A stretch of DNA of 64,000 nt from Paraspadella gotoi (taxonomy: Eukaryota > Animalia > Chaetognatha). Where the stretch lies: NCBI GenBank assembly GCA_051294375.1, contig CM119265.1:10743042-10807041 (forward strand), read 5' to 3'. The position numbers were made by a program, and so were the translations under genes. Below are positions 7,429-47,756 of this stretch, one piece after another; positions within the stretch are counted from its first letter, which is position 1, and each line of letters begins with the position of its first letter. The notes under the pieces are model-generated. The model did no database searches. It was not told where the DNA came from and worked only from the letters and a program-made list of their open reading frames with translations.

Positions 7429-8283
7429 ATTTCTATCATGTTGCTCTCTCCACCACGCAGATGCTCTTTTGTTCCAGATGTCGTGTGTCCACAAGGAAGA
7501 TACAAAAGATTATCGCGGGGCGCAACAGACCTCAGGGCGTCAGAATTCAGCCCTTCTCTCTCATTGCCAAGAGTTGAAGCATTCTCTCACTGGTTCCGTT
7601 ACGAAGCGGCTTGCGAAGTTCTTCGTCTCTTTCCTTTCGAGGTCGGACCTTCGAGAGATCAAGCTTCTGTGAAGATGTGCTGGATATCTCGCCATCTTAG
7701 TGACAACAGATTGTCCTATAGCACCATCAAATTGCATAGATCGCCGCGATTTTGCGGATTTTGCCTTTGTGTGGAGGGTGGCTCCTATCGGTCAGCAACC
7801 CATTGGTTTGCCGTCTACTCAAAGGAGTTTTTTCAGCTATGGCTCCTTCGCGCCGGATCTACAGCTTGGAGTGTGGCTGCGGTACTGATCTTTGCGCGTT
7901 TTCTGATGTTGATGCCTTTCCTTTATCCTTGATATATATTCGCAAGGACTTTGTTTCTTCTTGCTTTTGGCTTCCACAGTCGACCTTTTCTGAATTGGGT
8001 CTCCTTGCGATGTGGTCCGGACCACATGGTTTTGGTGAGGATTCACATACTGTTTCGTGCCCTCCAGGCTTTCCAGACGGATCGATTCGTCATCTTGGCC
8101 CTGTTTTTCGTTTGGATCGACTGACGGTTCTGTTTGATGCCCGCGTCCTGCCTTGCGTCCTGCGTCAGACAAGTTCTACGGGCCTAGCAACAATTTTCTT
8201 TTCCTCTTCCCCGGCGCCGCCTTCATTGGACCTTTTCTCTCCAGAACGTTTTTCCGCTCTGATCAATCAGTCTTTAGAGATGC

Positions 8284-8630
8284 TGTAGTAGGTAGTATTT
8301 CATACCCACTACTCGTCCGAGATCAGCAGCACCTATGATATGCGTCGGACGGGTACACGAGCTTCCTTCCACCCAAAGGACTCGGGTTCGCGTCCCTGCT
8401 GATTCACACAGTAAAAGCGGGACGGGGGTCTAACCCACCTGTATGTGTGGACTACAGCCCGATTCCAAAGTTCGACCTTGTGCGCAACGGACGGTTAAAA
8501 TGCTCGCGGGCATTCGTCTTTCCACATTGGTGAGCCACACGAACACGCTGGCACGTTAATACACCTCTGCCCGTGCATGTTAACACACCTCTGCCTCGAC
8601 CATCGTGGGGTGAAAGACGGCGAGCAGGAA
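8284..8630 (+). mobile_element. Truncated small LTR element (sister family of the 26724-27377 element): LTR 8284-8526, PBS and partial internal region
   Basis: TG...CA LTR of ~243 bp followed by TTGGTGAGCC (same PBS start as 26958). Same order of 5' hairpin, tRNA-like unit and twister-like fold. Interrupts the DIRS YR frame. Confidence 0.7.
8407..8482 (+). ncRNA. Twister (type P5)-like ribozyme, divergent/noisy copy
   Basis: CACAG..GCGG-GA-CGG-GGGTC-T^AA-CCC-AC-[CTGTA..TACAG]-CCCGA-TTCCAAA-GT-TCGA..CTTGTG. T1 is AC/GT here versus GC/GC in the other family. Confidence 0.55.
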
Positions 8631-10394
8631 TACGGGCAGCTATGGCAGTTCGGATGGCCCTTCGCTAAAGAGAGTGACTTGGACGTCATCTTCGTGCTGG
8701 AGATTGGTTTGGGCACTCACGACTTTTCTTCCGCTTTATTGTCGGGAGTTCGTTGGGTTTCTCTAGCGGTGGTTCTTCGTGGATGAGTGATTTCCTTTCT
8801 GATTCCATCCCGAAAAGATGGAGCTTGAGAGGAGGAGGAGGAGCTCTACTCCCTTTTCTGCTTTTCTCTTTGTATTTCTTGTGGACACACAACATCCTGG
8901 AACAAAAGAGCATCTGCGTGGTGGAGAGGAGCCATGAAGGAATCCTGGTTCCATTTCTGGAAACCATAAATTACCAAATGGAATCGAGCTCTTCTGCATT
9001 GGTCGAGACTTCAATGGAAGCTCCAATGGGTTGAGAAGGCAGGAAACTTTGCCCAACGGTTTCTGATCCACAAGTGGGGTGTCAAATCCATTCCTGTCAC
9101 CACATTTAAGTAAGTAGACGGGGATTTCAAAACATTAACCAAGGTAAAATTATTGATAAAAAAGAGATAAAAAGACGGTGTCCAATTTTGGACAGAATGC
9201 TCAGATACAAGATTACATCTATTTATACAGTGCAAGTGAGATCAGATCAGGCCTCTTCACCCATTGGGCCGCTTCCATTTGGGTCATCGACCAATCAGGA
9301 AAGACAATTCAATATTTAGTTTTATTTTTATATATTTTATCGGGGTCCCGCGAAGGATGATATTTCCCAATATTCACTGCCAAAAAACCGTTTTTTAAAT
9401 TCCTACAAATGAGTTTCCGCGATATAGTCATTAAACGTCAGCTTGAAAGGCAAAATTTGTTCAGATATAAAATTTTCGAGTTTCTCTTAGATTCTACGCC
9501 GCTAGTACAAACTATTTAAAAAAAAGAGGAAAAACGTTTTTGCTGATTTTTCCAGCATAATCCATAAATGTATAAGACGATGGGTACACCTGAAAGTGAT
9601 ATGTCTCTAGAAGAAGTGAAAATTCTTCCTTTAGTTTTATTTAAAATTTAGGTATTGTACCCAATAGGATAAATTGAGATACTCCGCTTTGCCGAAATTT
9701 TATTTAACAAAAAGATTTGTTTCTGGGTAGTTCAAATCTTAGTTTCTCTAACTGTAAAAAAAGTTATTTTCTGAATAACTTTGAAAAGAAAAGAGGTTAG
9801 GATGTGCGTAGGTATTCCAAATTAAAGCCCAATTCATGGACACCTTTTTCTAAATAGCTTTTTATTAAATTATCCATAAATCTTTACACAGCTTTTATTA
9901 AATCGGAAACAGTTAAAAGTTTTATAACAGTTTTTTGCAATTAAAAATTTTCAATGACAGGCATTGTGAATTTTTTCTTCTTTCAAATTTGAAAAAGGTC
10001 AAAGACATAAATTACATTTGATTACCATTTAAATTGCTTGTATTTTTTTAGTTAAGAAAACAAGCAAAAATTATCGAAGTAGCTGGCATAAAATGTTTTT
10101 TTAATATGAAAAATGATAAATAAAAAACATATTTTTCAAGATTGATATAAAAGTCTGAACGTCATACCTTCTTGTCTGTGAAAAAAAATTGTCATTTTTT
10201 CATTATCTACAACTGCAAACAAAAAGCTTGACACGCTGCTTGTTTCTTCTTCATAATAAAATTTCTTAATTTAAAAATGACCATTGCTGGCCGACATATT
10301 TGGACACAAAGCAAGACATTCATTGTGTTATTTGTAATAAACAATTTTTTCTTTTAAATATAACAACCTTCTAGTTACAAGGAATTTAATCTTA

Positions 10395-10960
10395 CTATCT
10401 AGGAAAAAAGTTAGAAACATTTTTAAATTGCAGGATATGCTAACTCGAAAAACATGCCTCGGATTTTTTTTAAAAAATCAGGATGTTTCAGATTCTAACT
10501 AAATTTCCTTTCAGTTGTTTCCTTCCATTTTCTTACGGTAGATCCAACCGTATAGAAGTTAGAGGCAAAATAAGAATTGCTTCCTCAAGTTGAAAAAAAT
10601 TGGCGGAAAAAAATCGCCTTTAGTTTTCCACAATTCTTGGATTTGAGTTATTTGTTATCTATTTCAAATTTGAGTTAGTTATTTTTTTTCATTTTTTTAA
10701 ATTTGGTTATTCCGAAATTAGACAGCCCCTCTCTTTGGTTCATAAGGTTGCAATTGTAGCTCGAGAAAGAGGGAAAGACATCAACATCAACATCGGGCTG
10801 AACAAGATATGCGCCAAAGGTGGAAAAAACATCCACTCGACCCCAAGCACAAGCAGCCCAGACGTAAGCACTCAGGCCGCCCGATGCCGAGGGGAGAGGC
10901 ATACCAAATATGAGAATGTTACCATGATGGTATATGTAAAATAGAACTTAGAAATAGAAA
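10395..10960 (+). mobile_element. Tc1-derived non-autonomous element (noisy copy)
   Basis: TA followed by TIR CTATCTAGGAAAAAAGTTAGAAACA. Remnant ...HTKY C-terminus near 10890-10912. Homologous to 26090-26703. Confidence 0.7.
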
Positions 10961-13616: not shown

Positions 13617-14392
13617 ATTCTATCATGTTGCTCCTCTCCACCACGCAGATGCTCTTTTGTTCCAGATGTCGTGTGTCCACAAGAAATACAAAAGATTATC
13701 GGCGGGCGCACAGACTCTCAGGCGTCAGAAATTCAGCCTTCTCTCTCATTGCCAAGAGTTGAAGATTCTCCACTGGTTCCCGTTACGAAAGGGCTTGGAA
13801 GTTCTTCGTCTCTTTCCTTCGAGGTCGGGACCTTCGAGGAGATCAAGCTTCTGTGAAGGATGTGCTGGATTATCTCGCCCATCTTAGTGACAACAGATTG
13901 TCCTATAGCACCATCAATTTGCATAGATCGGCGATTTCTGCGACTTTGCCTTTGGTGGAGGGTGCTCCTATCGGTCAGCACCCATTGGTTTGCCGTCTAC
14001 TCAAAGGAGTTTTTCAGCTATGGCCTCCTTCGCGCCGGATCTACCCAGCTTGGAGTGTGGCTGCGGTTTTGCGCGTTTTTGATGTGATGCCATTTCCTTT
14101 TTCACCTTATGATATTTTACGCAAGACTTTGTTTCTTCTTGCTTTGGCTTCCATCAGGCGACCTTCTGAATTGGTCTCCTTGCGATGTGGTCCGGACCAC
14201 ATGTTTTTGGTTGAGGATCACATATGTTTCGTGCCCTCCAGGCTTTCCAAGACGGATCGGATTCGTCATCTTGGCCCTGTTTTTCGTTTGGATCGACTGA
14301 CCGGTTCTGTTTGATGCCCGGTCCTGGCCTTGCGTTCCTGGTCAGACAAGTTCTACGGCCTCAGCACAATTTTCTTTTCTCTTCCCCGGCGG
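13617..14392 (+). mobile_element. DIRS miniature element, 5' half, with tyrosine recombinase ORF 13853-14314
   Basis: YSTINLHRSAIS...IGQHPLVCRLLKG...W.V..VL...KTLFLLALASIRRPSEL...LSKT is the DIRS YR N-terminal/catalytic region (catalytic R and K). Left ITR from 13617. Confidence 0.85.
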
Positions 14393-22703: not shown

Positions 22704-25700
22704 TCATTCCCTCCTGTTGGCCATCCTTCTTTGCAGATCTTGCTCGACATTTTCTCTCAATAGTGAGACGGCGCCGGGAACGTGAGCCGGATGGTTCGGT
22801 CGTCTTGGTCCCATTCCATTCCTTGGGTCCACCGGCGGACGGGCGGAAGGCGCCGGAATGGAGTCGGGCGCGGAAAGAGCATGTCGTTTGGCGAGCAATA
22901 AGAAACCCGCCAACCATTGAAAATAAGTCATTGTGTCGGGAATGTCGAGGCTGTGACCCACGAAGGGGGTGTCCCTTGAGACGACGACCGGCTCTCCTCT
23001 GATTTAGAAGAAAGGCGGACGTGAGCGGTTTTAAAGTTTAAAAATGGCGTGGATCATCAGAGCATCAGAGTACTATCGACCTAATTTTTCATTTTTTAGT
23101 CCGATGCCAACGGAAGTAGGGAGTGCGGAACCTCAGTGACCGCCTCCTATCGCTGCCATGTTTAAATTGGCCTCGTCACGTTTAAGCCAAAACTAATATA
23201 TCATTTCGCCCGCTCAGCCATTCAGGGTAAGGACGGACAGCGGTGAGGCTGCAGTCGTAGACGGCAACCATTTTCGCTCTCCTTGGCTTCTAACCTTTTA
23301 ACGAAGGTGATTCCGGAAGACTTTGCAGCGCGAGATTTGTTCTGACGCGAACCACGGCGATCTAATCTTTTCTCTTCCACGCCGAGATAAAAGTTCAACT
23401 CCTTGACTTCCCATCGTTCTTGAGTAAAGAAAAAAGAATAAACATTAGTATATGGATTTACGTACAGCGGTACAGGAGCATGTTTTTTTATTTTTTTTTA
23501 TTTCGAATTAAATGGTGGACGAATAATTCTTCAAGGCAGACCAGACAGACAGAGAGGAAGAGGAAAAAATGGGGAGATAGAAAATGCACCTGAAAATAAA
23601 CCTATGAATTGCCAAATAATATTATTTAGAATTTGTGCATCTGTGCATCACAGCTAAAAGTTTCGTTGGATCAAAGAAACTAGACACGATCCAACCTATC
23701 GTCGATATTTCTATCCAGCACTCACCGTAAACTCGTTTATTTCTTCCGTACAAGACTAAGAAGTCTTGACTCAATTCCACAGAGTACGGCTTCCAATCTG
23801 TCTTCTCGCTAAAATAAATTTCTTCCGCTGTCAAGGACTCCGGAGCCGTCAGAAGATTCAACGAGCGCAACGTCTATAGCGAAAAAAGGGCTTATTTTTA
23901 CATTCGCCGACCGGGATTTTGCGGTCGGTTATTTTTTTTTTTCGCTTTGTATATAGAAATCTCGTTACGCAAAACTAAAAAAAGGACATTGGTAAGGGTA
24001 GTAAAACTTTTTATTGCAAAATCCTAACCACCCCTAATCCCTAACCAACCTTAACACAATTGCTAACCGTTTAAAAAAAATAATACAAAAATATTATTTT
24101 CCCTTCTTTTCATCGTTTGTTTACGTACAACGAATTTTATTCAGAAACATAAATTTCGGACTTTTTTTGGCTTCAATCAGCTTCATTAGCGCAAAAACGA
24201 ATTAATTTATAAAAAGAATATTTTTACAGACTATGAAGTTTGAAGAGAGAAAGAAAGAGTCAGTGAAAATATTTTTTTTATAAATAAATTCGTTTTTGCA
24301 CTGATAAAAGCTTACATTGAAGCTGAAACATGTCCAAAATTTGTTTCTTTATAAAACTCTTACATTTTGATGCTAGTGCGGAGTACAATATAGTATTCCC
24401 CGATCTAATACTTAAGGGAGTGGTCTTTTCATACAATTGAAACATTCTTTGAAATATTATACCACTTCATTGATAGGGAAGCCAGGTTCACTGGGAGTGA
24501 ATAAATAAGACTGTGAGAGAGTCTTGATTGAAAGCTTGCAGAAACCTGCTATGTTATTATCTTGTAAGTGTGATGGAGGCCTTAAACCACCAAAGCCTGT
24601 CCAAAGTCAGGGACAAGATAGCTTATTTATTAAATGAATGGATAATTTTTATATTGGTTGTACCAATTTCATAAACAAACAACTCATTTTCTACTTCAGA
24701 CATATAAAAATAGAAACTAAAATAAATTTAAAATTATTATTTATTATAAAATTTATATTGCTGAACAAAAAATAATATAGTGCGGAGTACAATAAGTATT
24801 CCCTGATCTAATACTTAAAGGAGTGGTCTTTTCATACAATTAAAACATTCTTTGAAATATTCTCCACTTCTTTGATTGAGAAGCCAGGTACTCTGGGAGT
24901 GAATAAACGAGACTGAGAGAGTCTTGATTGAAAGCTTGCAGGGATTATGTCATTATCTTGTAAGAGTGATGAAGGCCTTAAACTACCAAAGCCTGTCCTT
25001 ATTTATTAAATGAATGGATAATTTTTATATTGGTTGTAGCAATTTCATATATTATTGCCAAAGTGAGACTCGACGCTAGAGGGAAAACAAAATTATATAG
25101 ATTAACAAAGCACCGACCGGTGGTACCTAAGGTTGGTTACGGACGTCGAATAGTAAAGTTATCTGAAAAAAGATTAGTGACTGGCTGACTGCGGAATTCA
25201 TTTTCCTTAACCGATAATGAAAATCTCGTGTAGGTATAATGTTGAAAGAAAGTAACATCTGACGTCAAACATTTTGAGATTGCAAATCTCATTTTGACCT
25301 ATATTATCAACTCGTCTTCCCGAATTTTTTTAAAACAATGACAAACCTCTTTAACGTGGTTTCTCTTGACCACTAACTGAGGCAAGTCCTCCGCCGAGTT
25401 CAAACTCCAGATTTGCCATGTCGATATGAGGGCATAAACGTCCTCCTCGTAGTGGACGAGGCGTTCCAACTGATTATTGGCGAGGGATTCAAAGAGAGCG
25501 AAGCGCTTAGGATCCGATTGCGTGACGCCGGCACCGGTTAAGGCTTGATACGTCGTTTCATGGGCCGACATTCCGGGCAGCAGCCGAATCTGGGGTGATT
25601 GGTTTATCGACGATCAAGGTTCAGTTAAGAATTTGCAAAGAATATAGCAGTTTGTGGTATTGCGGTTTATTCGCACTGCCTCACTTTCAGCTTCGTTCAC

Positions 25701-28700
25701 TAAATCTCATTGGCTCAGAGGGAGAACGCACCATCACAAGCGTTACATGTCAACCACAGTCCTAACGAGTTGGCAAAGCCAGACCGTCCTAGGGTAACCG
25801 CGCCAGTGGCAGGCGGCGCTACTGAGGGTCGGAGCCCCTAAAGCCCCCAAAGCCTCAACCCAATGGGCATTCTCGCATGGCTGTTGTATTTAGTAAGGTT
25901 TGAGGTTTGATGAAGAAACCTGTACTTCCCGCCTTCTCGCTTTCCCCGTCAGTGGTTGACCGTCTCGATTCGAAAAGTTACTGACAGATGTTCGTCAGTC
26001 GTTGGTACTTGCACAGTCTCTTGTCAGTCTTTGAGGAGTAAAGGTAAATCTTTAGTTTAACCATCACCACTAACCAGGTTTAGATTTGACTATCTAGGAA
26101 AAAAGTTAGAAACATTTTTAATTGAGGATATCTACTCGAAAACTTGCTCGATTTTTAAAAAAATCAGGATGTTTTAGATTCTACACTAAATTTCCTTTCA
26201 GTTGCTTTCTTCCATTTTTTCGTAGAATCCAACCGTATAGAAGTTAGAGGCAAAATAAGATTACTACCTCAAGTGAAAAATGGCGGAAAAAATCGCCTTT
26301 AGTTTTCCACAATTCTTGGTATTGAGTTATTTGTTTTATTTCAAATTGAGTTAGTTTATTTTTTCATTTTTTTAAATTTGGTTATGCCGAATAGACAGCC
26401 CCTCTCTTTGGTTCATAAAGGTGGCAATTGAATCGCTTTGGTCGCAGATGAAAAAGATGCAAAGTCGAGAACGCGCAACATCAACATCGGGGCTGAAAAG
26501 ATTGCGCTAAAGGTGTGAAAAAACATTTCACCTTCGTACCTCAATTCGCTTTACGAGAGCATGCCCAGACGAATGCAGGCAGTGGTCAATGCCGAGGGAG
26601 GGCATACCAAATATTGAGAATGTTTTACCCATGTTTCTGTATATTTTTTATTGAATAAATGAACTTTAAAAAAAAAAATGTTTCTAACTTTTTTCCTAGA
26701 TAGTACATACGTAAATAACCTAGTATGGTGGACTAAAATCCACCAACCGTTCATCAGCGGCCATTGGTGCCGGAGGCAAGTCATTCACCTCCCAACCCAC
26801 AGGTTCGGGGTTCTAGCCCGGTGGTCGTCTGGCAGTTAAGAGGGACGGGGCGCTTAACCCGCCTGTAACTCGGTGTTACAGCCTGATCCGAAGCTCAGGG
26901 ACTGCTTATATTGAACGGTTCTATCACTAACACATAATAATAATTACTGTCTCTTCATTGGTGAGCCCGACTTCTGAACACAACAGCAACAACAACACTT
27001 TCAGGCGACATGCCTCAACCTGGCGATGCACTTTCCGCCCACAACACATCAGGCGACATGCCTCAACTTGGTGACGACTTTCCACCAACAACAACAATTC
27101 ACTAAAGAGACGAAACAGACTTCTCCCTATGGGAGGGGGGATGTATGGTGGACTAAAATCCACCAACCGTTCATCAGTGGCCATTGGTGCCGGAGGCAAG
27201 TCATTCACCTCCCAACCCACAGGTCCGGGGTTCTAGCCCGGTGGTCGTCTGGCAGTTAAGAGGGACGGGGCGCTTAACCCGCCTGTAACTCGGTGTTACA
27301 GCCTGATCCGAAGCTCAGGGACTGCTTATATTGAACGGTTCTATCACTAACACATAATAATAATTACTGTCTCTTCACTAGATGCATTTGCTCACTGGAT
27401 CAAACGCACGATATCCTCGAATTCCTTTCTCTCCTTGGCAGCTTCTTGACGAGTTATGCTGAAAAGCCACTCGCGATGCTGAAGAAGGAAGGCTATCGTC
27501 TCCGCCTTTTGACTAAATCGTAAATTGTTCGAGCCCATCAGCGTCAGTGCCAAGATTGTGCTCTGATTTTCGTAGGGCTGTTAGAAATTACTAAAATTAA
27601 TTTTCATTCCTCCATGAATTTCACATAATTATAAGACTTTCCATTTTGTTTTCTTCGCTTTTGGAAGCGATCCTTTGAAGATGCAACAGCAGCGCTTTCA
27701 GCGTGGCTCGATTGACGACGGGAAGTTGATCCACAAGAGACTTGACGCTCCGCATCTGTTCCATCTCGTCCCTTTTGTCCTTTGTCATCATCAGGTCGCA
27801 CCATTTGTCGTGGAGAGCCGACGTCAAAAGAGAATCTGGTAATTCTCGAAAAAACCTGTAAAAGAGAGTTGTTAGAGTAAATTCAACCTTACCCTTAGTA
27901 ATTTTAACTTTGTAATTTTACCGTTTCAAAACATTGGCGACGTCATTGACGTGGACTTGGTCATCCTTCTTGCCTTCATCGTCCGATTTCACGCGGAGCT
28001 TGACTGCGCGCGCGTCGTCACGAAAACGCGCCAACAGGGCGCTCACAGCTGATTCCGTCCCGGATTCTCGATAAATGCCCTTAGATGATAATCCGTGAAG
28101 AAGGACGAAGTCCATGCAACTCTCAACAATCACTGGCACGTCGTTCTTAAGAAAGGTTCACTACAAGTTACTTAACCTCGCCTTTATCACCCGAATAATC
28201 TCACGACTCACCTTCGACAATAATTGCTCCTCGATTCTTTCTCCCGGTTTTTTGGCTTCCATGATAAAGTGGAGCCAACCTTGAGTTTCTTTTTTATCTC
28301 TCGCTTTAAGAGACACGACCCGGCCCTCCGAAAGAGTGAGGAGAATTTGAAGCCCAATTTGTTTATATCCTTGAATAAATCATATTTAAAAAATGCAATT
28401 GAAACAGTTAATACAAATATATCAATAATTGCTTTAAAAAAAACGTCAAGAACCTAAATTCTCAAATTTCCCCGATGCTCTTTTGTTCTTTTTTGCTGAC
28501 ATAAAAAATGCCTCCGTTCTAGCGATCACAGCGACATCTTTAGTTAAGATTATGTATTAAGGTATATATACTTAAGTACAGTTTTCCGAGGCAGTGCACA
28601 GCTGATTCTGATTGGTTTCCGTGATTTCGATAGATTCTAATCGAATTCTGTCCACGTGGAATCTTCAAGTCTTTTAGTTGTCACTGAGTTTTTAGTGCTT

Positions 28701-31700
28701 TTTAAAGTATTTTAGACTCTTTTTAGCCCTTTTTAGTCGGATCTGCTTATCAGCAGATTCCGACTCTATAATTCACTTTGTCGGTCCGTCGGTCCCACCC
28801 CAAAATATTGTCGGTAAATCATTATTATCATATCAGAACCTCGAATTTTGATAATTTATGCAAAAAAAATGATGTCCGTACATCCGTCTGTCCCCCCTTA
28901 GCAAAAAACTCCAATTACTCGTGATTGGATGAATGGATTGGTATGAAATTTTGTGTGTGGGTAGAAAACTGTATGAGTGAGATGGATATGAAGTTTCGAT
29001 GGAATCGTGCGAGTGGAAATTGGTTTAAATGGAAAAAACAAAAAAATCTATTTCACTATTTGAACGCCAATTGCTCATGAGCGGATAGAGCAATTGACTT
29101 GAAATTTTGTATGATGGTAGGAAAGTGTGTGATTGAGCTGGATATAAAGTTTCGATGGAATCGTGCGAGTGGAAATTAGTTAAAATGGAAAAAACAAAAG
29201 TCATATTTACTTGAAATATTTTTACTTAAATTTATTCATAATTATTATGTTTATTAAAAATTGGATAGATAAATTGAAATAGAATTTTGTGTGTGGGTAG
29301 GAAAGTATGTGATAAAGCTGGATATAAATTTTTTGATGGAATCGTAGGAGTGGAAAAGAGTTTAAATTAGAAAAGCAAAAGATACATTTATTTGAATTTT
29401 TTATAGTTTCTATCTCTTTCTGATTGATTGATTGATGGACTGACCAAATTATGCCAATTGATAAAAATATGCCAGTTGACCAAATTCTGCAAGTTGACCA
29501 AATTATGCCATTTGACCAAATTATGCTAGTTGACTAAATTATGAAATCAAGGACAGCCACTTCTCCGAACTTAGTTCACTTCAGCTATGTTATTAACTTA
29601 TTAGAGATTTGAAGGCCTAAACCCAACATATCCTGCTCAAAGTCAGGAGGCATCATATGCATCTTGATTTTTATAATGGTTGCGCTACTTTCAAAAGCTA
29701 ACAATTATTAACAGAATTAACAGAATTATCACGCTTACAAGCAGGAGAAAATCTGAATTCTCTTTATTACCTAGAAGCTCGTGAGAGACGTCTCCGCTAA
29801 TTTCTTCATCGGTTACTTGGTAGACGGTTTTACGCAATTGCATGTCGAAAACTTTTTCTTCTTTTATCGTGTAAATCGTGAGAGCTGATCCCTGCACCAT
29901 CCCAAAAACCAAAGGTGTTAAAAAGTTAACCGATTTTGTTTCCATTCCCGACAATCCGCTTATCTCTCGATTCACGGTCTGAAACTTCTCTCTGTCTCGA
30001 CCGTCTCGATTTACAATCGCGGTTTATTTTCCAAACTTACTTTGAGAACAACCCACGATTCCGTAGAGTCAATTCCCATCGACATATCCTTTACCATCAT
30101 CTTTCCAAATCTGGTGGAGCCGCTATCGGTGGCTACGAAAAGTTGTGGGGGTAGCAGGTTTCTAGCCAGACCTCGTTTCCACTCTCTCTACGTCGAAAAA
30201 CAAAAGGATATATCGAAATATTAGTTATCCATATATATGCAGTAATTAGAATTTTTCACTTAACCAATTTTTCGACCGTTTCCGCTGCGTAGATATAAGT
30301 GTGGCCCGGCACGTCGACGGAGAAGTGGTAAAGGTCATCCCTAATTTTGTATAAACATTTTGAGTTCTATAAATGTTGTTGTCTGTACTAGCTCTTAAAA
30401 ATTATCTCGATTATGAATGGAATTTTTAGTGAATGTACTTTCATTTACCGCAAGACTTTAGGCGATGGCATCGCGAGTTCTGTAACTAACCACGCCTCTG
30501 ACAATGAGACCTCTCCCTTTCCAAATAACGTTCCGTCCAAATCTTCAAAGTATGTCATCAATCCACCTTTCAGCACCCCGACGTATTTGGTATAGTTTCC
30601 GCGGGGAAGTGAAGTTTGAAAAAGGACTTCCTTGGTTTGTTCAGTGGATTCTTAAAAAAAAACAACTTATTGCTTTAGTATTTCATTATTATTATTATTA
30701 TTATTTAATTTTGTGAAGATTTTCTCTCACTTTCTTTCTTTCTTTCTGTCTTTCTTTCTTTCTTTCTTTCTTTCTTTCCTAGGCGATTTAATTCAACAGA
30801 TATGTTTGTATATTATATAATTATTATAATTATCTCACTCTCTTTTCCAGATAATGTGTCTGATTGGTCAAACTTTTGTTTTACAACTGTTACAGAGCCG
30901 GGAAGCTGGAATGGGTTTTTACGGTGCAACTTGAGAAGAGTTTCTTGCAGATATTGTCCAGATCTAAATAAAATTTGGAAATAAAGGATGATTTTTATGA
31001 AAAAAAATTCAAATAAACAAAAAATAATGTTTTAACTGGTTTATTTACAAAAATAAGAATTACTTTCGTGCTATTTCAATAGTTGAACATCCTCCCTTCA
31101 ATGAGTTGACATTGGCGCCCGTAACAATGAGTTGTATTGAAGTTAACAGATGTGGTTTCTGAACAACATTGTTAAAAAATCCAATAAGCGTAATAATTAC
31201 AAATAATAGTGGGGTTTTTTCATACCTGCACGTTGTCGTTTAGTGTTTTGTCTAAATCGTCTTGTTCTTTCATAGGGAACAGTAAACAAAATTGTCGCAT
31301 TTTGTACTTCATTACTATAAAATTAGTACGTTCTCGGAACGAAGCATTGACGCTAATTTTTTCTTGACCAAGGTGATGTTCCCACATTTTATTCGCGTTG
31401 TCATTTCCTATAAAATAACTTTTTTAACTCTATATTCTCGTATTGTTATCAATATCTTTTTTTACCTATTTCAACTAACAGCTCAACTAGTGACTTCGTC
31501 CATGACTCTCTTTCCCCCAAAAGAGGCTTAACTTTGGAATATGTTTCGCCGAGCTCTTTGTGGGCGAGAGAACAATTTTGGCAAACAACAATTCCCCAGT
31601 TCACGATTGCAAAGAGTGGATCATGTTGTCCGCAATCGGCGCAACGACGATTGGAAGGATTCTTTTGTATTTGACTCCAAACGCTTTTGTAAATTCGGAT

Positions 31701-34426
31701 GTTATTGTTAATTACGAGTTATTGGTCAAAAATTGATGGTAAAATTGTTACCTCTCCGGATCGGAAGAATGAGCTTTTCTAGATGCATCATCTACCGCAA
31801 CCCGCCAATGCGGCAACTCTGCCTCATCTTCAACAGAAAATGTTAATTTTATTACATTTTTAAAGACGATGATTAAGTGACGTGAAGGTGTATCCTGTTC
31901 GGAAGGCAATTATTATTGATGATAGATAAAAAAAACAGAAACAACAAATAAAAGTTATGTAACTCACCTGTACAACGGCATCTTTTACATCGAGTTCAAA
32001 TATTGGATTACAATCGAAATGATCTTCATCTTTGTAGACGGAGATGAAAGCTCGACTAACAGACACAAACCTTGACCCTAAGACATCTTTGCCACTCTCT
32101 TCGGGTTCTATCATTTTTAACTGCAAATACCCTGTTGTGATTGTTAAATGAATTTATAAATCCATCAAGCTTATAAATTTTCGTAAATATCTCACCGACT
32201 TTGTCGTGGTGAATAACCCTTGTCTCCGATTTCTTGTCGTCTATCACCGTCTGTTGAATTAGGTTCAAAATTTCCCAACTTTTTTGTCTCAAGTAATTTA
32301 CTGTCAATGCCCAATATATATTAAAAATACCTTCATAATGTTCATACTCCATTCGCACATTTCCTTGGCCGTTGGAACCGAAAAAACGTATTCTCGGTTT
32401 TTAATGGCGACAACAACTCGAAACGGCCGACTCTCATCACCCTTACATTCCATCGTTTTCACATCCATACGACTGCCGCGTATCACAAGTCTAGTAAAAT
32501 TCGTTATTATTCGTTATTTTTTTCATGATATAACATATTGATGACTCCTTTTCCGTTTTTGATTTCTTTTGGGGTTACTTTTTTTTACAACGTGAGTAAC
32601 ATTTACAGTTGATAAAGTAATAGGTGAAGGAGACTATACAATACTTAGTAGTACAATATATAGTATACATACTTCGAAAGAATATCCTTTTCATTTGCAT
32701 ACAGTTGTAGACTCGATCCAATCTCTTTGGATGAGATTAGACGGCCCCAGTAAGGCTTCCATTGAGTTAATCCTGTTAATAAAAATTGTGGCAGTTATTG
32801 TAAATTCTGCACAAATGTATTGCTGACAGTATTACCGACAGTTGTTTTCAATTGCCAGCAAAGCGTTCCTTCTTTAACTGTTGTCATCCTCGAGTAATGG
32901 CCTTTGTCATCCCGGGTCGGCTCTCGAGGGGTCCCATTTGATTCATGATCTTAATGATTGAGATTAAACACAACATACAGTAAAACTGCTATCGAACAAG
33001 TTTGAGCAAACAATGTCGGATCTGCCTACAAATAATTAGGAGGTAATAAGCTAACTTTGGTCAACTTGCATAATTTAATCAACTTGCATTATTTGGTCAA
33101 CTGGCATAATTTGGTCAACTGACATAATTTTGTCAGCTGGCATAATTTGGTCAACTGACATATTTAGTTAACTAACATAATTTCGTCAACTGATATAATT
33201 TGGTAAACTGACATAATTTGGTCAACTGACTTAATTTGTTTGACATAATTTGGTTAACTGACATAATTTGTTCAACTGACATAATTTGGTCAACTGAGTA
33301 ATATTGGTCAACTGACATAATTTGATCAATTAACATAATTTGGTCAACCGGCATAATTTGGTCAACTTGGCATAATTTTATCAACTGGCATAATTTTATC
33401 AACTGCATAATTTGGTCAACTGGCATAATTTACTCAACTAGCATAATTTGGTCAAATGGCATAATTTGGTCAACTTGCAGAATTTGGTCAACTGGCATAT
33501 TTTTGTCAATTGGCATAATTTGGTCAATCAATCAATCATGAGAGAGATAGAGAGAGAAAAACTTTAAATAATTCAAATAAATGGTCTTTTGGTTTTCTAA
33601 TTTGAACTCTTTTCCTCTCCTATGATTCCATCAAAAAAATTTATATCCAGCTTTATCACATACTTTCCTACCCACACACAAAATTCTATTTCAATTTTAT
33701 CTATCCAATTTTAATAAACATAATAATTATGAATAAATTTAAGTATAAAATACTTCAAGTAAATATGACTTTTGTTTTTTCCATTTTAACTCATTTCCAC
33801 TTGCACGATTCCATCGAAACTTATATCCAGCTCAATCACACATTTTCCTACCCACACACAAAATTTCATACCAATCCATCCATCTAATCACGAGTAATTG
33901 GAGTTTTTTGCTAAGGGGGGACGGACGGACGGACATTTTTTTTGGCATAATTTATCATAAATCGAGGTTCTGATATGATAACAATGATTTACCGACAATA
34001 TTTTGGGGTGGGACCTACAGACCGACAAAGTGAATTATAGAGTCGGAATCTGCTGATAAGCAGATCCGACTAAAAACTAAGAGAAAATTTATTACTATTT
34101 GGTTATATTATTAACAAAAGGAAGAGACAGTAATAATAGTAAACCTGTTCTACCTTTAAAAATGACTTCCGCATACTCGCTCTCCCCATTTTCTATGTCA
34201 AGTATCTGCTGATGATCATGATGTTCCTAAATATACATGTAAAATATTTTTATTAAAACTTTTTTTCGGATATATGGTAATTTTATACTATTCTGTTAAA
34301 ACAATTTTGCGCAGGTCCACTGTTGTTGTTTTCTTGAGTCGTGGCGACATTTTCAAAAGCCTTTGCCAACGCTGCCACGCGTGTTTGAGCACATAGAACG
34401 TCGTCGTATATCTCATCATCATCCAT
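22704..34426 (-). CDS. ARAP: ARAP/centaurin-delta-like gene, copy A (multi-exon; PH-PH-ArfGAP-ANK-PH-PH-RhoGAP-RA-PH)
   Basis: Exons spliced by eye: PH1 ~32948-32331, PH2 ~32132-31752, ArfGAP ~31683-31226 (CADC-x16-CQNC), ANK 31158-30839, PH3/4 30650-28212, RhoGAP 28146-27396 (GIYRESG, VLKRFFRELP), RA 25589-25347, PH5 23873-23726, 23418-23295, 22998-22704. Start ATG 34426 is tentative. Confidence 0.88.
23882..25163 (+). mobile_element. 5'-truncated copy of the TIR element at 34960-35882, with an inverted hammerhead pair and an internal tandem duplication (24374-24675 / 24778-25045)
   Basis: Colinear with 35180-35882. Right TIR at ~25060-25163. Hammerhead-like motif at 24301-24334. Confidence 0.6.
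26090..26703 (+). mobile_element. Tc1-derived MITE-like element, complete
   Basis: TIRs CTATCTAGGAAAAAAGTTAGAAACATTTTT at both ends, TA after the right end. Retains the Tc1 transposase C-terminus ESMPRRMQAVVNAEGGHTKY* (~26555-26617). Confidence 0.88.
26758..26827 (+). promoter_or_regulatory. tRNA-like unit with degenerate Pol III A/B boxes inside LTR1 (repeated at 27178-27247)
   Basis: 70 nt. Acceptor-like stem CGGCCAT/GTGGTCG, A-box-like TGGTGCCGGAGG, B-box-like GGTTCTAGCCC. The anticodon stem does not pair. Confidence 0.55.
26832..26905 (+). ncRNA. Twister ribozyme, type P5, in LTR1 (predicted cleavage U26855/A26856)
   Basis: P5 GCAGTT/GACTGC; P2' GAGG then GA; T2' CGG; U^AA; P2 CCC; T1 GC; P3 CTGTAAC/GTTACAG; P4 CCTGA/TCAGG; L4 TCCG-AA-GC. 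Same element order as known twisters. Confidence 0.78.
27252..27325 (+). ncRNA. Twister ribozyme, type P5, in LTR2 (predicted cleavage U27275/A27276)
   Basis: Identical to 26832-26905, 420 nt downstream. Confidence 0.78.
28735..29550 (+). mobile_element. Helentron-associated (HINE/DINE-1-like) non-autonomous element, 3'-truncated
   Basis: 5' subTIR hairpin AGTCGGATCTGC-TTATCA-GCAGATTCCGACT after a T-run, (GTCC)-type microsatellite, internal repeats, 18-bp GTTGACCAAATTATGCCA units. Confidence 0.75.
32995..34071 (-). mobile_element. HINE/DINE-1-like element, complete, with 18-bp satellite array (~33055-33530)
   Basis: 5' subTIR hairpin at 34041-34071. 3' subTIR GCAGATCCGAC plus hairpin GTTTG-CT-CAAAC at 32995-33026. 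T-rich ends. Confidence 0.8.
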
Positions 34427-38437: not shown

Positions 38438-39888
38438 TTAGGACGAGTCGCTGTCATCCTGCTCAATCGAGTATTGCGTCGACAGTCGTCCGTCGTGTTT
38501 GAGGTGGAGAAAAGAGGCCATCCATTGAAAGTAGGAGGATTCGTCCGGAAACATGATGCTGTGCCCGATGTAAGGCCTATCCTTTCCCGTGTCGTGGACA
38601 ATGGGATGTTCGCTGAAAAGTTTGTGGTTTCGTATAGAAATTATTGTTTACGTATATTAAGTTTTTAAAACCCTACGCATTTATTCGGGCGACCTGTCGA
38701 TGACGGTGAGCGCAAGGGGCTTCCCAGGCATCTTCGATCCTTTCGCGAGTCGCCGCCTCTTTTCGACCCCGAAATAAACGTTCATTCCTCGCAGTGACCA
38801 AGAATCTGACCCAGGAGCAAAGAAAGTTAAAAAAGCTTGGCTAATGCCGACTGCCTCTGGTCTTGGTAAAATTCTGTTTAAATATCTAATCTAGAGAAAA
38901 TGAAACAAGTTTAGGCTTATTTACATTCGGCAACCATCCAAAGATGTGATCGAGCATTCACGTTTCTTTCATTATCATTATTATGATTATATAACTCACG
39001 TCTCTCTTTTCCTTTTGAGAACAAAATGAGCGATCGTCCTCGAATTTGCACCGTGTACTTTTTCCATTTGTCCTTCCGACACACGTCCACATCCAACGTC
39101 ATCCCGAAGGTATTTGACGGAGTCAAAAGGGAAAGACGACGCAGCTCCTGTTGGTGAGCAACAAAAGTAATTGACAATCGTAAATCATAATACATTGTAC
39201 ATTATACAATGTACATATTGTTATGTAGTGTGCCAGGTGACTAAAGAGTGACTGATAGTTGAGGAAAAAACGTTTCCTAAATTTTCGATTAAGAAAGGCA
39301 ACAATTTAAAAATTAAATATAACCTGTTGGACATGATTCATCTTGACCACGAGTTGGAGCTCGTTTTCCCATCCTTCCCATTTACTCCAACCGGTTACAA
39401 TCTCGTAAATGTCCTCTTCGTCGGTCACGAGTCGCTCTAAATCTTGGCCCACGGATTCGAAGATTGCGAAGTCGGCCGCCTTGTCAGAGAGGTCAGCACG
39501 CTCTAATGCCTTTAAGTTCACTTGTCGCCCGGTGATGCCTGGATGAAGTTTAACCTGACCCCAGAATTAAGTTGGGTTTTTTACCGTAAGTTCAGTGATA
39601 CGGCTCCTATCAGTTATGTTGCTTTTCAAAACAAGTTTTTCTAAAACGAATTTTGAGCCCTTAGTTTTGCTGGTCAATAATTTGGTTGTATTTATTGTTT
39701 AATTTTCGAATATTTTACCTTAGATATTATAATCCTTTCCTTTCGTTGTGGTTGAAATTTAGAGAAAAGTTTGAAGTGGATTCAACAACGATTTATTTGA
39801 AATAATAATAACAGACATGTTTCGGCTCTTGTTCAAGCCTTCATCAGCGTTTGAATAGATTAGAAATTCTTTGTGCAAGAGAGAGAGA

Positions 39889-39921
<33 letters not shown>

Positions 39922-42900
39922 GAGAGAGAGGGGGCAAAGTTTTCAACACAGAGTTGAGTAAAGGATAGTGGTCAGTTTGAGGACAGGCTAAGGTGATGAC
40001 AGACAGAGTGAGTTGGGTGAAAGAAATTGGAAATGGTGAGAGAGAGAGAGAGAGAGACATTAAGAAAAATAATACATTTTTGTAATGTACTACAAAGATA
40101 AAAATTATAAACTAATGTGACAATAAATAATGTTAACAATTAACTACTTTAAATTAGTGAAAGTGAAAAGGAAAATTTGAGTGTGAAATTGAAAAAAAAA
40201 ACCAATAAATCGTTGTTGAATCCATTTCAAACTTTTCTCTAAATATTTTACCTGAAAAAGATTTCTTTCTTTGCCGCCTTGATCCTGCAGCTTTTCGACC
40301 GAGACAGAGAAGTTCACTTGTTCTGTTTTTACCGCTTGCGGCGAGACAGGAGGCGTTTCCATGCGTCTGGGTATGACGAAGTTAAATTTAAACTTTGCGT
40401 CGCACGTGACCAAGAAAACTAGAGATTAAATACAAACGAACGTTTGAAGTTCAATGATCCCTTCAAATTCGCGTTTTTCTTTTTCCGCATTTTCGCCAGA
40501 AACGTCGAAGAGAAAGTCGCGATGCGTCGTTAAATATTTGACGGAAGCGATTTTCGCGTTAAAGTCCCGAGAACTGGTTCCCATCAACGCGTTGGCAAAG
40601 ATGATGCTCAGATTTAGTAGATCCTTTTATTTGTGCACCGTTGATAAAATAGAAAGTTAATGAATAAAAATTTAAATGTGATTTAATCCCAACATTTAAA
40701 TTCTAATGCTAACAAAATTTAACAGTAAAACTAAAAGTTAAATCTCACCACTTTATTAAATTCACTTTCCGAGGAGATGCGCCGAAAGTGCAGCAACAGC
40801 GCCTTCAGCGTCGCCAGACGAACAGGCGACAGAAGCCGCAGCAGCTTTTTGACTCTAAGGTGCGATTCATCTGCCTTCAATTCCTGCTCCATTAAAGCGC
40901 AGATTTCGTCGCGAAATGAGGGAGGCAAGAGACGCTCGCGTAATTTTTGCAAGAATCTTAAAATGGATAACGAAAGACGTTATAAAGTAATAAACATTAT
41001 AAAGTAAAAGTGATAAACACTCTGCATTCAACATACCCCAGTAACACTTTGGCGACAACGTACGCCGAACTCGAAGAAAGTTCGACTGCGGTGGCGTCGT
41101 CACGGAACTGCTGCAGTAGCGACGAAACGTGGTCCTTGTCTGTTGAATCGCGTTTGTAGATTCCGGGACTTCTCCGGCCGTAAATGAGCACGTAATTCAT
41201 GCATTCTTTAACGATAACCGGAACGTTATCCTTAAAAAATAATTCATCGTTAAAAGCAACTTTGAAACTTGCTGTGCTATTATAGAAAAACTTTATCTTG
41301 GACGATTGCTTTTTGTATGACGGACGCACCCTCGTCAACAGCTGCTCCTCGATTCCCTCGCCCGCCCGTCTGGCGTCGTTTATAAAGCCGCACCACTGCT
41401 CCGTCTCCGCCGCGCTCTTCGCTCGCAAAGAAACTTTCCTGCCACGCAAATTAAGACAGAGTTCAGATTCGCCTCGACGCGATCGCTCAACTTTGGCCGC
41501 GCTCGATGTTTTCCTTAGGTTCAGGCGGATTATTCTTTCTTCAAAAACGACGAAAATGAGCAAACTGGATCCCTGAAGAACAAAAAGGTACTCAAAAAGT
41601 GCGATAATTTTCAGTTGGTTAAGAGCCTGGTATTTTTTTAAAGAAGAGAAATGACTTACTTGGAGCACTACCCAAGCATCTCTGGATATCGTTTCTGAAT
41701 CGAAAATAATTTTTTCGAATCTCGTGTAGCCTTGAGGTATAACGAGATGGAACATTTGAGGAGGCAAAAAATTTAACGCCAGACAACATTTCCAGTTTTC
41801 CTAATAAAGAAAGTAAAAATATTTGTAATGTTATAACATGGACTAACATGCGGACGTGGAACAGACCAGTTTCTAAATCAACTCTCAGAGTATCCAATAT
41901 CCATCTTTATTGGTTTTCCCCTAAACCTGAGAGAAACTGTCGAGTTACTATGTTCCTCGGTACGTTTTTTGATAAAAGGATTCTGTCCGCAAAATAAAGT
42001 AAAATGTCTGATCAAGTTAACCTTAATAACCTTATCGTCGTCTTGTTTCGCGGATAGTAAGTGCGTCTGATTCGGGGTCTTAATTTCAAACAGGTTTTTC
42101 CTGTAAAAGTTAAAAAATTTATAGTTTTCATGACTATAGTTTTGGTTATGATTATCATATTTTCATTCGATTCGAAGTTAAAATTATGACACTTAATATC
42201 ATTCTCTTCATCATCTGCATCTTCTGAGCTTCTCTATTAATGAATGTAAAGCGGGATTAAGTAAGATAAATACTTCAATAAAAAAAATTTTGTTTACAGT
42301 CCTGTGCAAAAAATACGCGTCACTTTATTTCAGACTTTCCTACGATAATCAGATGGGATGTCCGATGAATGTGATAAGAAAATTTATAAATAAATTGAGA
42401 GAGAAAAACATAACTATTAACTAATGATAACTAGATCATAACATTATAAATCATAAAAGATTTATAAATTAATCAATCATTTAACCATATTAACAATCAA
42501 TCAATCAATCAGAGAAACTTTTAAAAATTCAAATAAATATGTATTTTGGTTTCCTAATCTCAACTCTTTTTCACTTTTCCATCAAAAATTTTTATCCAGC
42601 TTGATTCCATACTTTCCTACCCACACACAAAATTTCAATTTATCAATACAATTTTTGATAAATAAAATAATTATGAGTAAATATAAGTAACAAAAAGTAA
42701 ATGTCACTTTTGTTTTTTCCATTTAAACTAATTTCCACTCGCACGATTCTTTCGAAACTTTATATCCAGCTCAATCACGCACTTTCCTACTAACACACAA
42801 AACTTTATTCCAACCCATCCATCCAATAACGAGTAATTGGATTTAATACTAAGGGGGGATGGACGGACGGACAGATATCATTTTTTTTGCATAATTTATC

Positions 42901-43172
42901 AGCATCCCCCATTGTTGACCCCGGGGGGGGGAGCCCATTTTGAGCTTTTTTTTCTTATTTTTCACTTACTCTTTCACTTACCTATCCCTCAACATCTTTA
43001 TTTCCATTTCATCTAAATTTCACTTCTTTATTCATTTTATATTAATCTGAATTAATTTAAATCTTTAAGATGGTTTATGTCGGTTTACTTATTTATTAAA
43101 TTTATTAGTGTTATACATTATCCAATGTATTTTCTTACCAAATGTTAACCTCTGCTTCTCTGTCTCTCTCTC

Positions 43173-43212
<40 letters not shown>

Positions 43213-46200
43213 ACAAAAAAATGAAAATGTGAATTGTCAAAGCACTGATGAAGGCTTGAATGTAAGCCGAAACTTGTCTGTACCATTAAAAATAAAATCG
43301 TTGATGTAAAAAGACTTCGTCTTTAATCTCAAATAACACAAACACAACGAAAGAAAGATTAATCACAATGCATAATTTATCATAATTTGAGGTTCTAATA
43401 CTAACTGACAAGATTTTTGGTGGGACCAACGGACCGACAAAGTGAATTATAGAGTCGGAATCTGCTGATAAGCAGATCCGACTAAAAAAAATCTTAAAAG
43501 CATAAGGATCGAGCCAGCTTTCGATGGTATCCAAATATTGATGCGATGATAACCAAATATTGATGCGATGATAACCAATAATTGATGCGATGATAACGAA
43601 ATGACTGATGTGATGACAATCAAATGATTTATGCGATGATAGTCATTCATTGATGTGATGATAAACATTCATTGATACGATGATAGTCATTCATTGATGC
43701 GATGATTGTCATTCATCGCGATGACTCATAAATAAAACAAACAAATGCGTGTATGAGTGAGAGAGAGAGAGAGGCTGGACAGTTTTCCCGCCAACGAGAC
43801 GCATTATTAGGTCACTCTCGTTTATATAAAGAATAATCAGAATTTTTAGGAAAAAAATCTACAAAAATCTCGTATGTAAATTTGGGATTTTGTATTGAGA
43901 AAAAAGCGCGGTATAAATGGCGATAATAAAAGTTTTTAAAAGAAAAAAAAAAGAGAGAGAGAGAGAGATAGAGAGAAGCTGGACAGCCGCTGGACCGCCG
44001 CTGCAGAGCTGAACTCGTTTTTTGACGAATCTTAGTAGGGACGAACTCTTTTCCTTTTTATAAAAAAAATATTAAAATATAAATATTTGGGTATAGAGCC
44101 ATATAAGAAATTTTTTGTACATTGAAAGTATACTAAAAAATGCATAAATCTTCGTTTGAGCATATTCCCATACTAAATTTTTGACTCACTCCATTGAGAG
44201 GGGCTACCCCTATTCAGAAGAAAGAGAGAGAGACCTGACAGCCGCTGGACAGCCGCTGCAGAAAGAGAGAGAGAAGCTCAACAGCCCCTTTAATCGTCCA
44301 AATAGTCAAAGTACTTATGCCATAAGTTATAGCGCCAGAGGTAGCACGAGCTCCTCCAAACCCAAAGGATTCGGGTTCGTCCTTTGCTGATTCACACAAG
44401 AAAAACGAAAAATAAAATAAAAGGAGAACGGATGGTGAACTCCTCTCGGCATCGTCTTTTACATTGGTGAGTCCACAATATATATATAAATTTTTTTTTT
44501 TTAAAAAGAGAGAGAAAGAGAGAGAGAGAGAAAGTGAGAGTGAAAGAAGCAGGACAGACGCTGCAGAGCCGGAACTCGTTTTTAGACAAATCAGAAGTCA
44601 CTGCGACTGAGAAAAAGAGAGAGAGAGAGTGAGCGACATATAATTAAAAGAAAGAGAGAGAGAAAGCGACATAATAATTAAAAGGTTTTGTTTGTAAATA
44701 AAACATAAACAAATACGAATATTGATATGAAACATGATAATTTTAAAGACGACAATAATGCCGATTGACTTGATTGATCAAATAATTAATCAATTTATTT
44801 GTTTGAATAATTAATTAATAGATAACTAAATAATTGATTGACCGGTTAATTAATTATTTATTAATTAATTGACTAATTGATTAATTAACTGATTAATTAG
44901 TTGATTAATTAATACATTTTGCATTAACATTTAATATAAAAAAAGAAGCATAATCAATTACTGAAACAGGTTTTTGGTTTTTTCCATTTAAACTCATTTC
45001 CACTTGCACGATTCCATCGAAACTTCATATATCCAGTTTTCTTGCTAAGGTGGGACGGACGGACAGACTGACAGACGGCTCTATAATTCACTTTGTTGGT
45101 CCATCGGTCCGCCCCCCAATCTTGTCGGGCATGTACTTAATATCATGTCAGAACATCGAATTATAATAACTTATGCCAAAAAAATGTATGTCCGTCCATC
45201 TGTCCGTCACACTTTAGCAAAAAACACCAATTACTCGTGATTTGATGGATGGATTGGAATGAAATTTTTGTATAGGAAAGTGTTTGATTGAGCTGAAAAT
45301 CCAGTTTCGATGGAAACAAGTTAAAATGGAAAAAAAATATATATTTCACTATTTGAACGCCAATTACTGATGAGTGAATGAGGTGATTGACTTCAAATTT
45401 TGTATGTGGGTAGGAAAGTGTGTGATTGAGCAGGAAATCAAGTTTTGATGGAATCATCCAAGTAGAAATAAGTTAAAATAGAAAAACAAACAATCTATTT
45501 CTCTATTTGAATATGCTTTTTTTATTTTTATATTAAATGTAAATTCAAGCTACATTAATGATTATTAAATAAATAAGTAATTAATTAATTATTAACTATT
45601 TGTAATTAATTAATTAATTAATTTTGTGATGAAGATTGTTGTTTTATGATTGAGAGGGCGAGACAAAGTGGAAAACGATTTTGACATGCTTACCGCTAAG
45701 GATCGTTGGCAGATCCGGCATGGTTTGCTCAAACTTGTTTTTGCATAATTTATCATAATTCGATGTTTTGCATGAATATAAGTGAAAATTGAGGGGGCGG
45801 ACCGACGGACCGACAAAGTGAATTATAGAGTCGGGATCTGCTATTAAGCAGATCCGACTAAAAATAATACTAGACATCCGGAGTGATAGCTGGATAACTT
45901 GATTGTCCAAGATATAAAAATAAAATGATCCAATACTGTGGCTAAATTATCTGATGTAGCGACTTCAGATTTTGCACTCTGGTAAAAAAATCGCTGACGT
46001 TTTTTATTTTCCAACTCCCAGTAGTCCAGCTTACTTACTTTTTTAGTTATGTGCTCATCAATGGCATTATCCAATTTCAAAAAAAAATATTTGCATTTGA
46101 ATAGGACCTTCCAATTATAAGATATATTTTTATAAAAAAAATGAAATGTTTCAAAATTTTGGTTCATCTTAATGATCCTACAGATATAGACATTGCAATA

Positions 46201-47708: not shown

Positions 47709-47756
<48 letters not shown>

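Follow-up and report, generated by a model that had tools for sequence, protein, structure and literature searches.

Plant long terminal repeat (LTR) retrozymes, as described in PMC4918200 and for N. benthamiana in PMC9695139, are non-coding elements with a pair of LTRs that each carry a ribozyme, a primer-binding site (PBS), a polypurine tract (PPT) and a 4-bp target-site duplication (TSD). Their RNA product has no R repeat, the ribozyme is predicted to be blocked in the circle, and a Gypsy partner is proposed (PMC4918200). Metazoan retrozymes are non-LTR elements according to the relevant parts of PMC7229834, PMC4918200 and bioRxiv 10.64898/2026.07.22.740005, which place LTR retrozymes in plants, with hammerheads. 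The twister ribozyme has one documented retroelement role in the literature covered here, in a non-LTR element. We analyse a stretch of 64,000 nucleotides from the chaetognath Paraspadella gotoi (assembly GCA_051294375.1, contig CM119265.1, positions 10,743,042 to 10,807,041 of the forward strand; hereafter the window), which contains a 654-bp non-coding LTR element composed of two 234-bp LTRs and a 186-nt internal part. Judged from its letters, each LTR holds an intact type-P5 twister core.

The element shares with plant LTR retrozymes the non-coding layout, the ribozyme in each LTR, PBS, PPT and 4-bp TSD; its predicted product would likewise have no R repeat and a ribozyme blocked in the circle, with a Gypsy-type partner proposed. 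It differs from the plant elements, as these sources describe them, in possessing a twister instead of a type III hammerhead, a tRNA-type RNA polymerase III (Pol III) head in the LTR and a tRNA-Trp instead of a Met PBS, in a predicted product of 420 nt instead of 600-1000 nt that is less self-paired, and in its animal host. Its proposed mode of action is that of an LTR retrozyme, but the original definition does not cover it, as it has no type III hammerhead. The second close system is Helenus/TRIMp3 (Kojima 2024), which PMC10886601 describes as terminal-repeat retrotransposons in miniature (TRIMs) of 311-1263 bp with PBS, PPT, tRNA-like A and B boxes in the LTR, 4-bp TSD in the animal families and many solo LTRs. 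All of these agree with the 654-bp element, and Helenus-2_SyJa also has a Trp PBS. The element differs from Helenus in the ribozyme of its LTR and in having no T run after the tRNA head, the likeness being judged by described features. The twister T-variants of Perere-3 in Schistosoma (PMC8501958) also have a weak or absent P1 and reside in a retroelement; they differ, according to that description, in their type-P1 topology, in being single copies at the 5' end of an autonomous non-LTR element, and in having no circle.

Layout of the element and the twister fold in its LTRs

The features of the element are as follows (positions are those of the window).
26720-26723: TSD, 5' copy, CTAG
26724-26957 (+): 5' LTR, 234 bp, TA...CA ends; many family contigs diverge exactly at both limits
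26726-26745 (+): 7-bp hairpin at the 5' end of the LTR
26745-26920 (+): 9-bp outer stem (26745-53 with 26912-20), enclosing tRNA-like head and twister
26757-26828 (+): tRNA-like Pol III head by motif match, with A box 26765-76, B box 26809-19 and closing stem 26757-64/26821-28
26831-26906 (+): fold of the type-P5 twister in the 5' LTR, with G26844 as catalytic base and the cut predicted at 26855/26856; from descriptor search and base-by-base check, core letters as in L026/L027
26849-26854 (+): self-complementary hexamer replacing P1; a 6-bp P1 is possible between two copies
26856-27275 (+): predicted 420-nt double-cleavage product, circle template
26958-27143 (+): non-coding internal region, 186 nt
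26959-26971 (+): PBS, tRNA-Trp type, 12 of 13 bases as in a published Trp PBS
27131-27141 (+): PPT of 11 purines, followed by TG (2 nt) before the 3' LTR
27144-27377 (+): 3' LTR, containing the second copies of the tRNA-like head, whose A box is at 27185, and of the twister (27251-27326, with the cut predicted at 27275/27276)
27378-27381: TSD, 3' copy, CTAG

The LTRs (235 bp if a shared G is counted) are spaced by 420 and differ by two substitutions in total, 26758C/27178T and 26805T/27225C. The PBS shares its 12 of 13 bases with the tRNA-Trp PBS of Gypsy-32_NVi and Helenus-2_SyJa (PMC10886601 Fig S2). The longest open reading frame (ORF) of the element starting with ATG has 85 codons. The internal region contains a 26-nt repeat at 27001-26 and 27049-74, and its stretch 27103-11 is the complement of the LTR 3' end. 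A hammerhead-like stretch around 27107-18 was rejected, with no matching core strand visible and most copies differing at 27113; the Rfam hammerhead models have no match in the element. A first-pass annotation of the window had proposed LTRs with a CTAG duplication, PBS, PPT and no real ORF, and recomputation of the coordinates bears this layout out, with the two substitutions and an internal part of 186 nt.

In the 5' LTR, P5 comprises 7 bp with two G.U pairs (26831-37/26900-06), and P2 two Watson-Crick pairs (26842-43/26858-59) plus a C.A opposition. The GA is located at 26844-45 and the U^AA at 26855-57. The 3-bp pseudoknot connects 26846-48 with 26888-90 and the 2-bp pseudoknot 26861-62 with 26893-94, P3 has 7 bp and P4 5 bp; every pair was checked base by base. 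Catalytic G, U^AA, L4 motif, both pseudoknots, P2 and P4 of the type-P5 twister are all present, and the P1 hairpin is absent, as only 6 nt (26849-54) separate the pseudoknot from the cut. The first-pass annotation had assigned every element of a type-P5 twister to each LTR, which is correct for GA, U^AA, P3, P4, P5, L4 and the pseudoknots (complementary as annotated, and Watson-Crick throughout), but not for the missing P1 hairpin or for P2 with its two pairs and C.A. The annotated cut sites at 26855/6 and 27275/6 and the 420-nt monomer are consistent in position with the twister pairing. A loose P5 descriptor matches the two LTRs and nothing else in the window; 60,000 shuffles of the LTR and 7.5 Mb of shuffled window yield 0 matches.

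The check proposed with that annotation, a scan with the Rfam twister-P5 model, failed for the LTRs: the element gives no twister match at E up to 10, and the gathering score of RF02684 (37.6 bits) is not reached. We ascribe this to the model, which has 58 positions and expects a P1 hairpin of about 20 nt and no P3, whereas the LTR RNA has 6 nt for P1 and a 19-nt P3. The LTR fold agrees with RF02684 in strand order, GA, U^AA, both pseudoknots and L4, with a 3-nt P2 as in five Rfam-passing examples (see below); it differs in the self-complementary hexamer in place of the P1 hairpin, the presence of P3, an A-U pair closing P4, and a score below threshold. According to the parts of PMC11662667 used here, about 94% of tested natural twisters cleave, and natural twisters tolerate flaws in P1 (which is dispensable), P2 and P4 and are sensitive in pseudoknots and catalytic bases. 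These sensitive parts are intact in the LTR.

Related twisters and repeat families

A pattern derived from the core was scanned over public contigs, and 242 matches in 239 sequences were examined with a filter for P4 and pseudoknots, which 11 of the 242 pass, one of them being the window itself. Six Rfam-passing P5 twisters (41.6-53.7 bits) occur at four loci, L012, L026 (three copies), L027 and L101, five of the six with a 3-nt P2; the core letters of L026 and L027 are identical to those of the LTR twister. L009 and L114 have Rfam scores of 25.3 and 21.5 bits. L046, L159, L179 and L184 pass the filter without any Rfam match and were dropped as chance. The eight natural twisters show the expected covariation, 10 of 20 pairs changing on both sides, and a model built from them matches the LTRs with 21.2 bits (E=0.021) and, besides both LTRs, a third site at 24570-24611. 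A pattern for type-P1 twisters detects six loci, none with an Rfam match, and a pattern for the short-P1 module has 0 matches in viral contigs. The three twisters of L026, a metagenome contig, lie about 470 nt apart (228-284, 697-753 and 1170-1233, all on the minus strand). L009 is a 178-kb viral contig with its P5 twister at 147-201 (-), which has a 3-nt P2; its P1 region can alternatively form an 8-bp hairpin with the catalytic strand, a possible off state.

For the repeat family of the element, contigs of the public runs X1, X3 and X9 were aligned to a 981-bp stretch comprising the element and about 160 bp of flank on each side (3,527, 18,030 and 1,125 contigs, respectively). X10 (two contigs), X11 (one, at low depth), X12 and X13 (none) were not used as evidence. 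X9 is guessed to be RNA and covers the intron flank, and is thus uninformative on expression; none of the runs recorded as RNA contains the element. The places where contigs depart from the alignment are fixed: 91, 118 and 20 contigs (X1, X3 and X9, in this order) do so before 26724, 44, 62 and 20 behind 26957, and 49, 60 and 21 behind 27377. For the internal part, X1 and X3 show a summed depth of about 3,900x relative to unique flank and X9 one of about 190x; for the LTR the values are 19,000-33,000x and about 1,500x. Summed depth is no copy number and is taken only as very many copies with LTRs in excess. The family to which the element belongs has sharp ends and a high copy number. This copy has, in both LTRs, a minority letter of the family at five positions, so that it derives from a recently mobile sub-lineage. 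Exact element motifs have 0 matches in metagenome contigs and in viral contigs. X1 and X3 each contain one contig, with the depth of a single copy, that resembles an LTR-LTR junction (joint 26959/27141): one LTR's end is joined to the start of another, and the few bases directly beyond the LTR ends are kept. Loose ends behind 26957 and 27377 have a consensus that begins with ATAT in all three runs (agreement 0.42-0.46), which hints weakly at a preference for AT-rich targets.

Variation in the twister region was scanned in X3, where 7,041 contigs cover 26814-26924 (variants near the ends of this range not being listed). At a frequency of at least 1% there are 19 variants and no indel, and the short P2 and short P1 are therefore family traits; on the same ground, a lesion peculiar to this copy was rejected as the origin of its short P2. 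At this threshold no variant falls on the five invariant C/G positions of the core, compared with 17 of the 32 other C/G positions that vary (one-sided p=0.036). The commonest variants fall into the P3 loop (26870, 26871) or change G.U to Watson-Crick pairs (26831, 26900, 26825, 26828).

The third site belongs to a second repeat family with the twister module, present in three copies.
24374-24671 (+): copy a, 298 bp, with twister 24557-24621 (Rfam Twister-P5) and a perfect 6-nt palindrome, 24577-82, for P1
24778-25047 (+): copy b, 84% identical to copy a, palindrome kept, lacking 20 nt of L4/P4/P5
29584-29693 (+): copy c, decayed, palindrome and P4 kept, end coordinate read by eye

Its Rfam Twister-P5 match has 25.6 bits (E=0.0019), below the gathering score. 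A descriptor with free pseudoknots and a P5 of at least 6 bp detects exactly three sites in the window, the two LTRs and 24570-24611, and 0 in 10 Mb of shuffles. The LTR and the second family resemble each other in the ribozyme only (local score 35, against 31 for the best of 300 shuffles); there the two sequences compared differ, with every helix kept, by compensatory changes in P2 (GC>UA), the 3-bp pseudoknot (CG>UA) and the 2-bp pseudoknot (GC>AU). The change in the 3-bp pseudoknot yields the pair that 26846C>T and 26890G>A together would give. The P1 of the second family, AGGCCU, is a perfect palindrome in all three copies; its hexamer differs from that of the LTR at three of six places, including a CG>GC swap of two central neighbours that could pair only between copies, and self-complementarity survives 5.9% of random triple changes in the hexamer. 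The family is older than the LTR element. Its TA...TTCA ends resemble the LTR; PBS, PPT, clean TSD and A/B boxes were looked for in it and none was found, and its repeats may represent solo LTRs or else tails of Penelope type. At 49223-49252 (-) lies a 30-bp piece that resembles the 3' end of the second family.

A chance match in a structured LTR, for which the missing Rfam hit speaks, is highly improbable and already largely refuted by the shuffles (0 in 60,000 of the LTR, 0 in 7.5 and 10 Mb of the window), by the identity of the core to Rfam-passing twisters, and by the covaried homologue with its Rfam P5 match.

The tRNA-like head and the proposed circle

The A and B boxes of the head lie 44 nt apart (start to start), a spacing as in tRNA, and deviate by one mismatch each from the consensus motifs; 6 of 3000 shuffles are as good. 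The family variants 26825T>C and 26828T>C convert G.U pairs of the closing stem into G-C. The plus strand has no run of four T until 27507, which would let the transcript read through both LTRs into the flank. GGTTC is present in the head, as in the description of Helenus (PMC10886601). By these motifs, together with the TRIM layout and the 4-bp TSD, the head agrees with the animal Helenus/TRIMp3 description, in which Pol III transcription is itself given as unvalidated.

In the available portion of PMC10886601 the word "ribozyme" occurs only in the reference list, and four variants of the twister L4, sought in the accessible supplement, occur in none of its LTRs and once in an internal part. 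Read by eye, the tRNA-like head is directly followed by a complete type III hammerhead in the LTRs of Helenus-2_SyJa and -2_SyUm (PMC10886601 DataS1): CUGAUGA and GAAA cores, a GUC site, three helices and a 12-nt loop-loop complementarity. With their Trp PBS and 4-bp TSD they are candidate insect LTR retrozymes, unrecognised in the parts of PMC10886601 at hand.

The same source proposes that Helenus arose by insertion of a short interspersed nuclear element (SINE) into an LTR. The twister could accordingly be a passenger, brought into an ancestral TRIM LTR with a SINE-like unit of tRNA and ribozyme, now weak or dead in an element that moves as a plain Helenus. The lack of an Rfam match, the missing P1, a pseudoknot change in 13.5% of copies and a family too young for strong covariation would fit such an origin, but catalytic bases and both pseudoknots are intact and under-varied, the diverged second family retains the fold by compensatory change, and a hammerhead occupies the same position in a separate Helenus lineage (by the reading by eye given above). 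We regard a passenger as quite unlikely.

The reading that we consider probable is that this young, high-copy, non-coding element works as an LTR retrozyme, via a 420-nt circle copied by a Gypsy-type partner. Pol III would start near 26755, pass both LTRs and run on into the flank. Cleavage at the two sites, 26855/6 and 27275/6, would give a 420-nt RNA without terminal redundancy, and would probably be fastest when the two LTR twisters swap strands and their hexamers pair into a 6-bp P1; in the circle, a decoy hairpin would keep the single twister off. From the circle, a tRNA-primed reverse transcriptase (RT) would pass from the PBS across the junction, whose predicted sequence equals LTR sequence, and restore the LTR to full length, in line with the argument made for plant retrozymes. 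Priming by tRNA-Trp and integration by a Gypsy element would yield the 4-bp duplication. The Trp PBS is shared with Gypsy-32_NVi, an element of another species.

The twister might also be active and only trim ends: it would give a defined end to a Pol III transcript that lacks a terminator, and what is copied would be a linear RNA with a single cut and its R repeat retained, as for ordinary TRIMs. Most Helenus LTRs in the available supplement of PMC10886601 have a T run after the head, which is missing from the LTR here and from the two Synergus LTRs, those of Helenus-2_SyJa and -2_SyUm; a transcript from about 26755 that is cut in the 3' LTR alone would keep about 100 nt of terminal redundancy; and the predicted circle is less self-paired than those of plant retrozymes (z=-2.0). 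Against this, it would have to be explained why only one of two identical twisters cuts, the palindrome suggests that both cut in concert, and a twister cut would take away the 3' LTR downstream of it and leave a 2',3'-cyclic phosphate. Trimming of this kind appears unlikely to us.

The concerted cutting invoked here rests on the P1 hexamer GGCGCU, which forms at most one G.U pair in cis but is complementary throughout to a second copy; self-pairing of this strength is found in 1.1% of hexamers. The skeleton of a strand-swapped double twister is computed at -50.4 kcal/mol, 6.4 better than the -44.0 of two monomers without P1. The decoy hairpin 26846-49/26858-61 is predicted with p 0.98-0.99 in the circle and about 0.6 in a solo LTR. 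A precedent comes from amphibian non-LTR retrozymes: section 15 of PMC7229834 describes an axolotl hammerhead in which one helix is a single pair with a palindromic tetraloop as its cap and which cuts well only as a dimer. The LTR twister has, like these hammerheads, one reduced helix, a palindrome and an expected dimer activity; it differs from the amphibian retrozymes, as characterised in PMC7229834 and bioRxiv 10.64898/2026.07.22.740005, which use another ribozyme class, form tandem arrays, have no LTR, PBS or PPT and are linked to Penelope-like elements. That the two LTR twisters need to pair as a double twister is, in our estimate, about as likely as not.

Several results weigh against the proposed circle and its parts, beginning with the missing Rfam match. 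The P4 closing pair is A-U in the LTR versus G-C in all eight natural examples, and the model from these eight twisters misaligns the middle of the LTR and is partly circular, six of its training sequences having been chosen by the core pattern. The variant 26890G>A (13.5% in X3) breaks a pseudoknot pair unless it is linked with 26846C>T (6.6%); both are CpG sites, and the contigs do not show their linkage. An asymmetry of C>T versus G>A in the stems is not significant (p=0.10 without CpG, 0.13 overall). ARAGORN calls the head only at a lowered threshold and the Rfam tRNA model has no match, as expected for a decayed SINE-like head, and a lack of T4 runs is also seen in 26% of shuffles. As to the partner, no RT or integrase domain is found among the 117 window ORFs scanned and no second PBS in the window. 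For the two-LTR transcript, the constrained double twister is 14.5 kcal/mol less favourable than the free fold, and 2-D folding, a calculation without pseudoknots, gives the swapped P1 a probability of about 0.1. P1 being dispensable in twisters, dimerisation may be unnecessary, and a one-base shift is an alternative path to the change between the hexamers of the two families.

A wider proposal joins the chaetognath element with the gall wasps: Pol III-driven miniature LTR retrozymes of animals may recruit any small ribozyme, a twister here and a type III hammerhead in Helenus-2, to produce a circular RNA as template, with a double twister that would be active only when the LTRs pair and off in the circle and in solo LTRs. 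We advance it tentatively, as somewhat less likely to hold than to fail.

Genomic surroundings and significance

The element is inserted in antisense between the RhoGAP exon (27624-27917) and the RA exon (25302-25613) of one gene with ArfGAP, RhoGAP and RA domains, an order which we take to be ARAP-like and to point to an animal. At least two, perhaps three, ARAP-like genes with ArfGAP, RhoGAP and RA exons occur in tandem, at 25302-31718, 39309-48770 and 60250-60591 (all on the minus strand). An element resembling a miniature inverted-repeat transposable element (MITE), 26089-26704, possesses perfect 31-nt terminal inverted repeats and stops 15 bp before the LTR element; its relatives are located at about 10385-10920, 46279-46887 and 50146-50594. 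Fragments resembling tyrosine recombinases, at 13763-14311 (+) and about 7408-8288, with a weak Phage_int_SAM match, suggest a decayed DIRS- or Crypton-type element.

The literature searched, with the approximately 2,600 twisters of the PMC11662667 supplements outside its scope, describes neither an LTR element with a twister nor a ribozyme in Helenus nor a dimeric twister. The retrozyme interpretation given in the first-pass annotation is supported by the present analysis, which adds three things absent from it: the tRNA-derived head, the palindromic P1 hexamer and the second family.

If the LTR twisters are active, the twister would gain a role in LTR retrotransposition, and LTR retrozymes would extend to animals and join the Pol III TRIMs, for which no ribozyme has been reported; a life cycle with a circular template would then have had more than one origin and used different ribozymes. 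Should the strand-swapped double twister prove real, it would add a new architecture to the natural ribozymes and offer a useful switch for circularising RNA.

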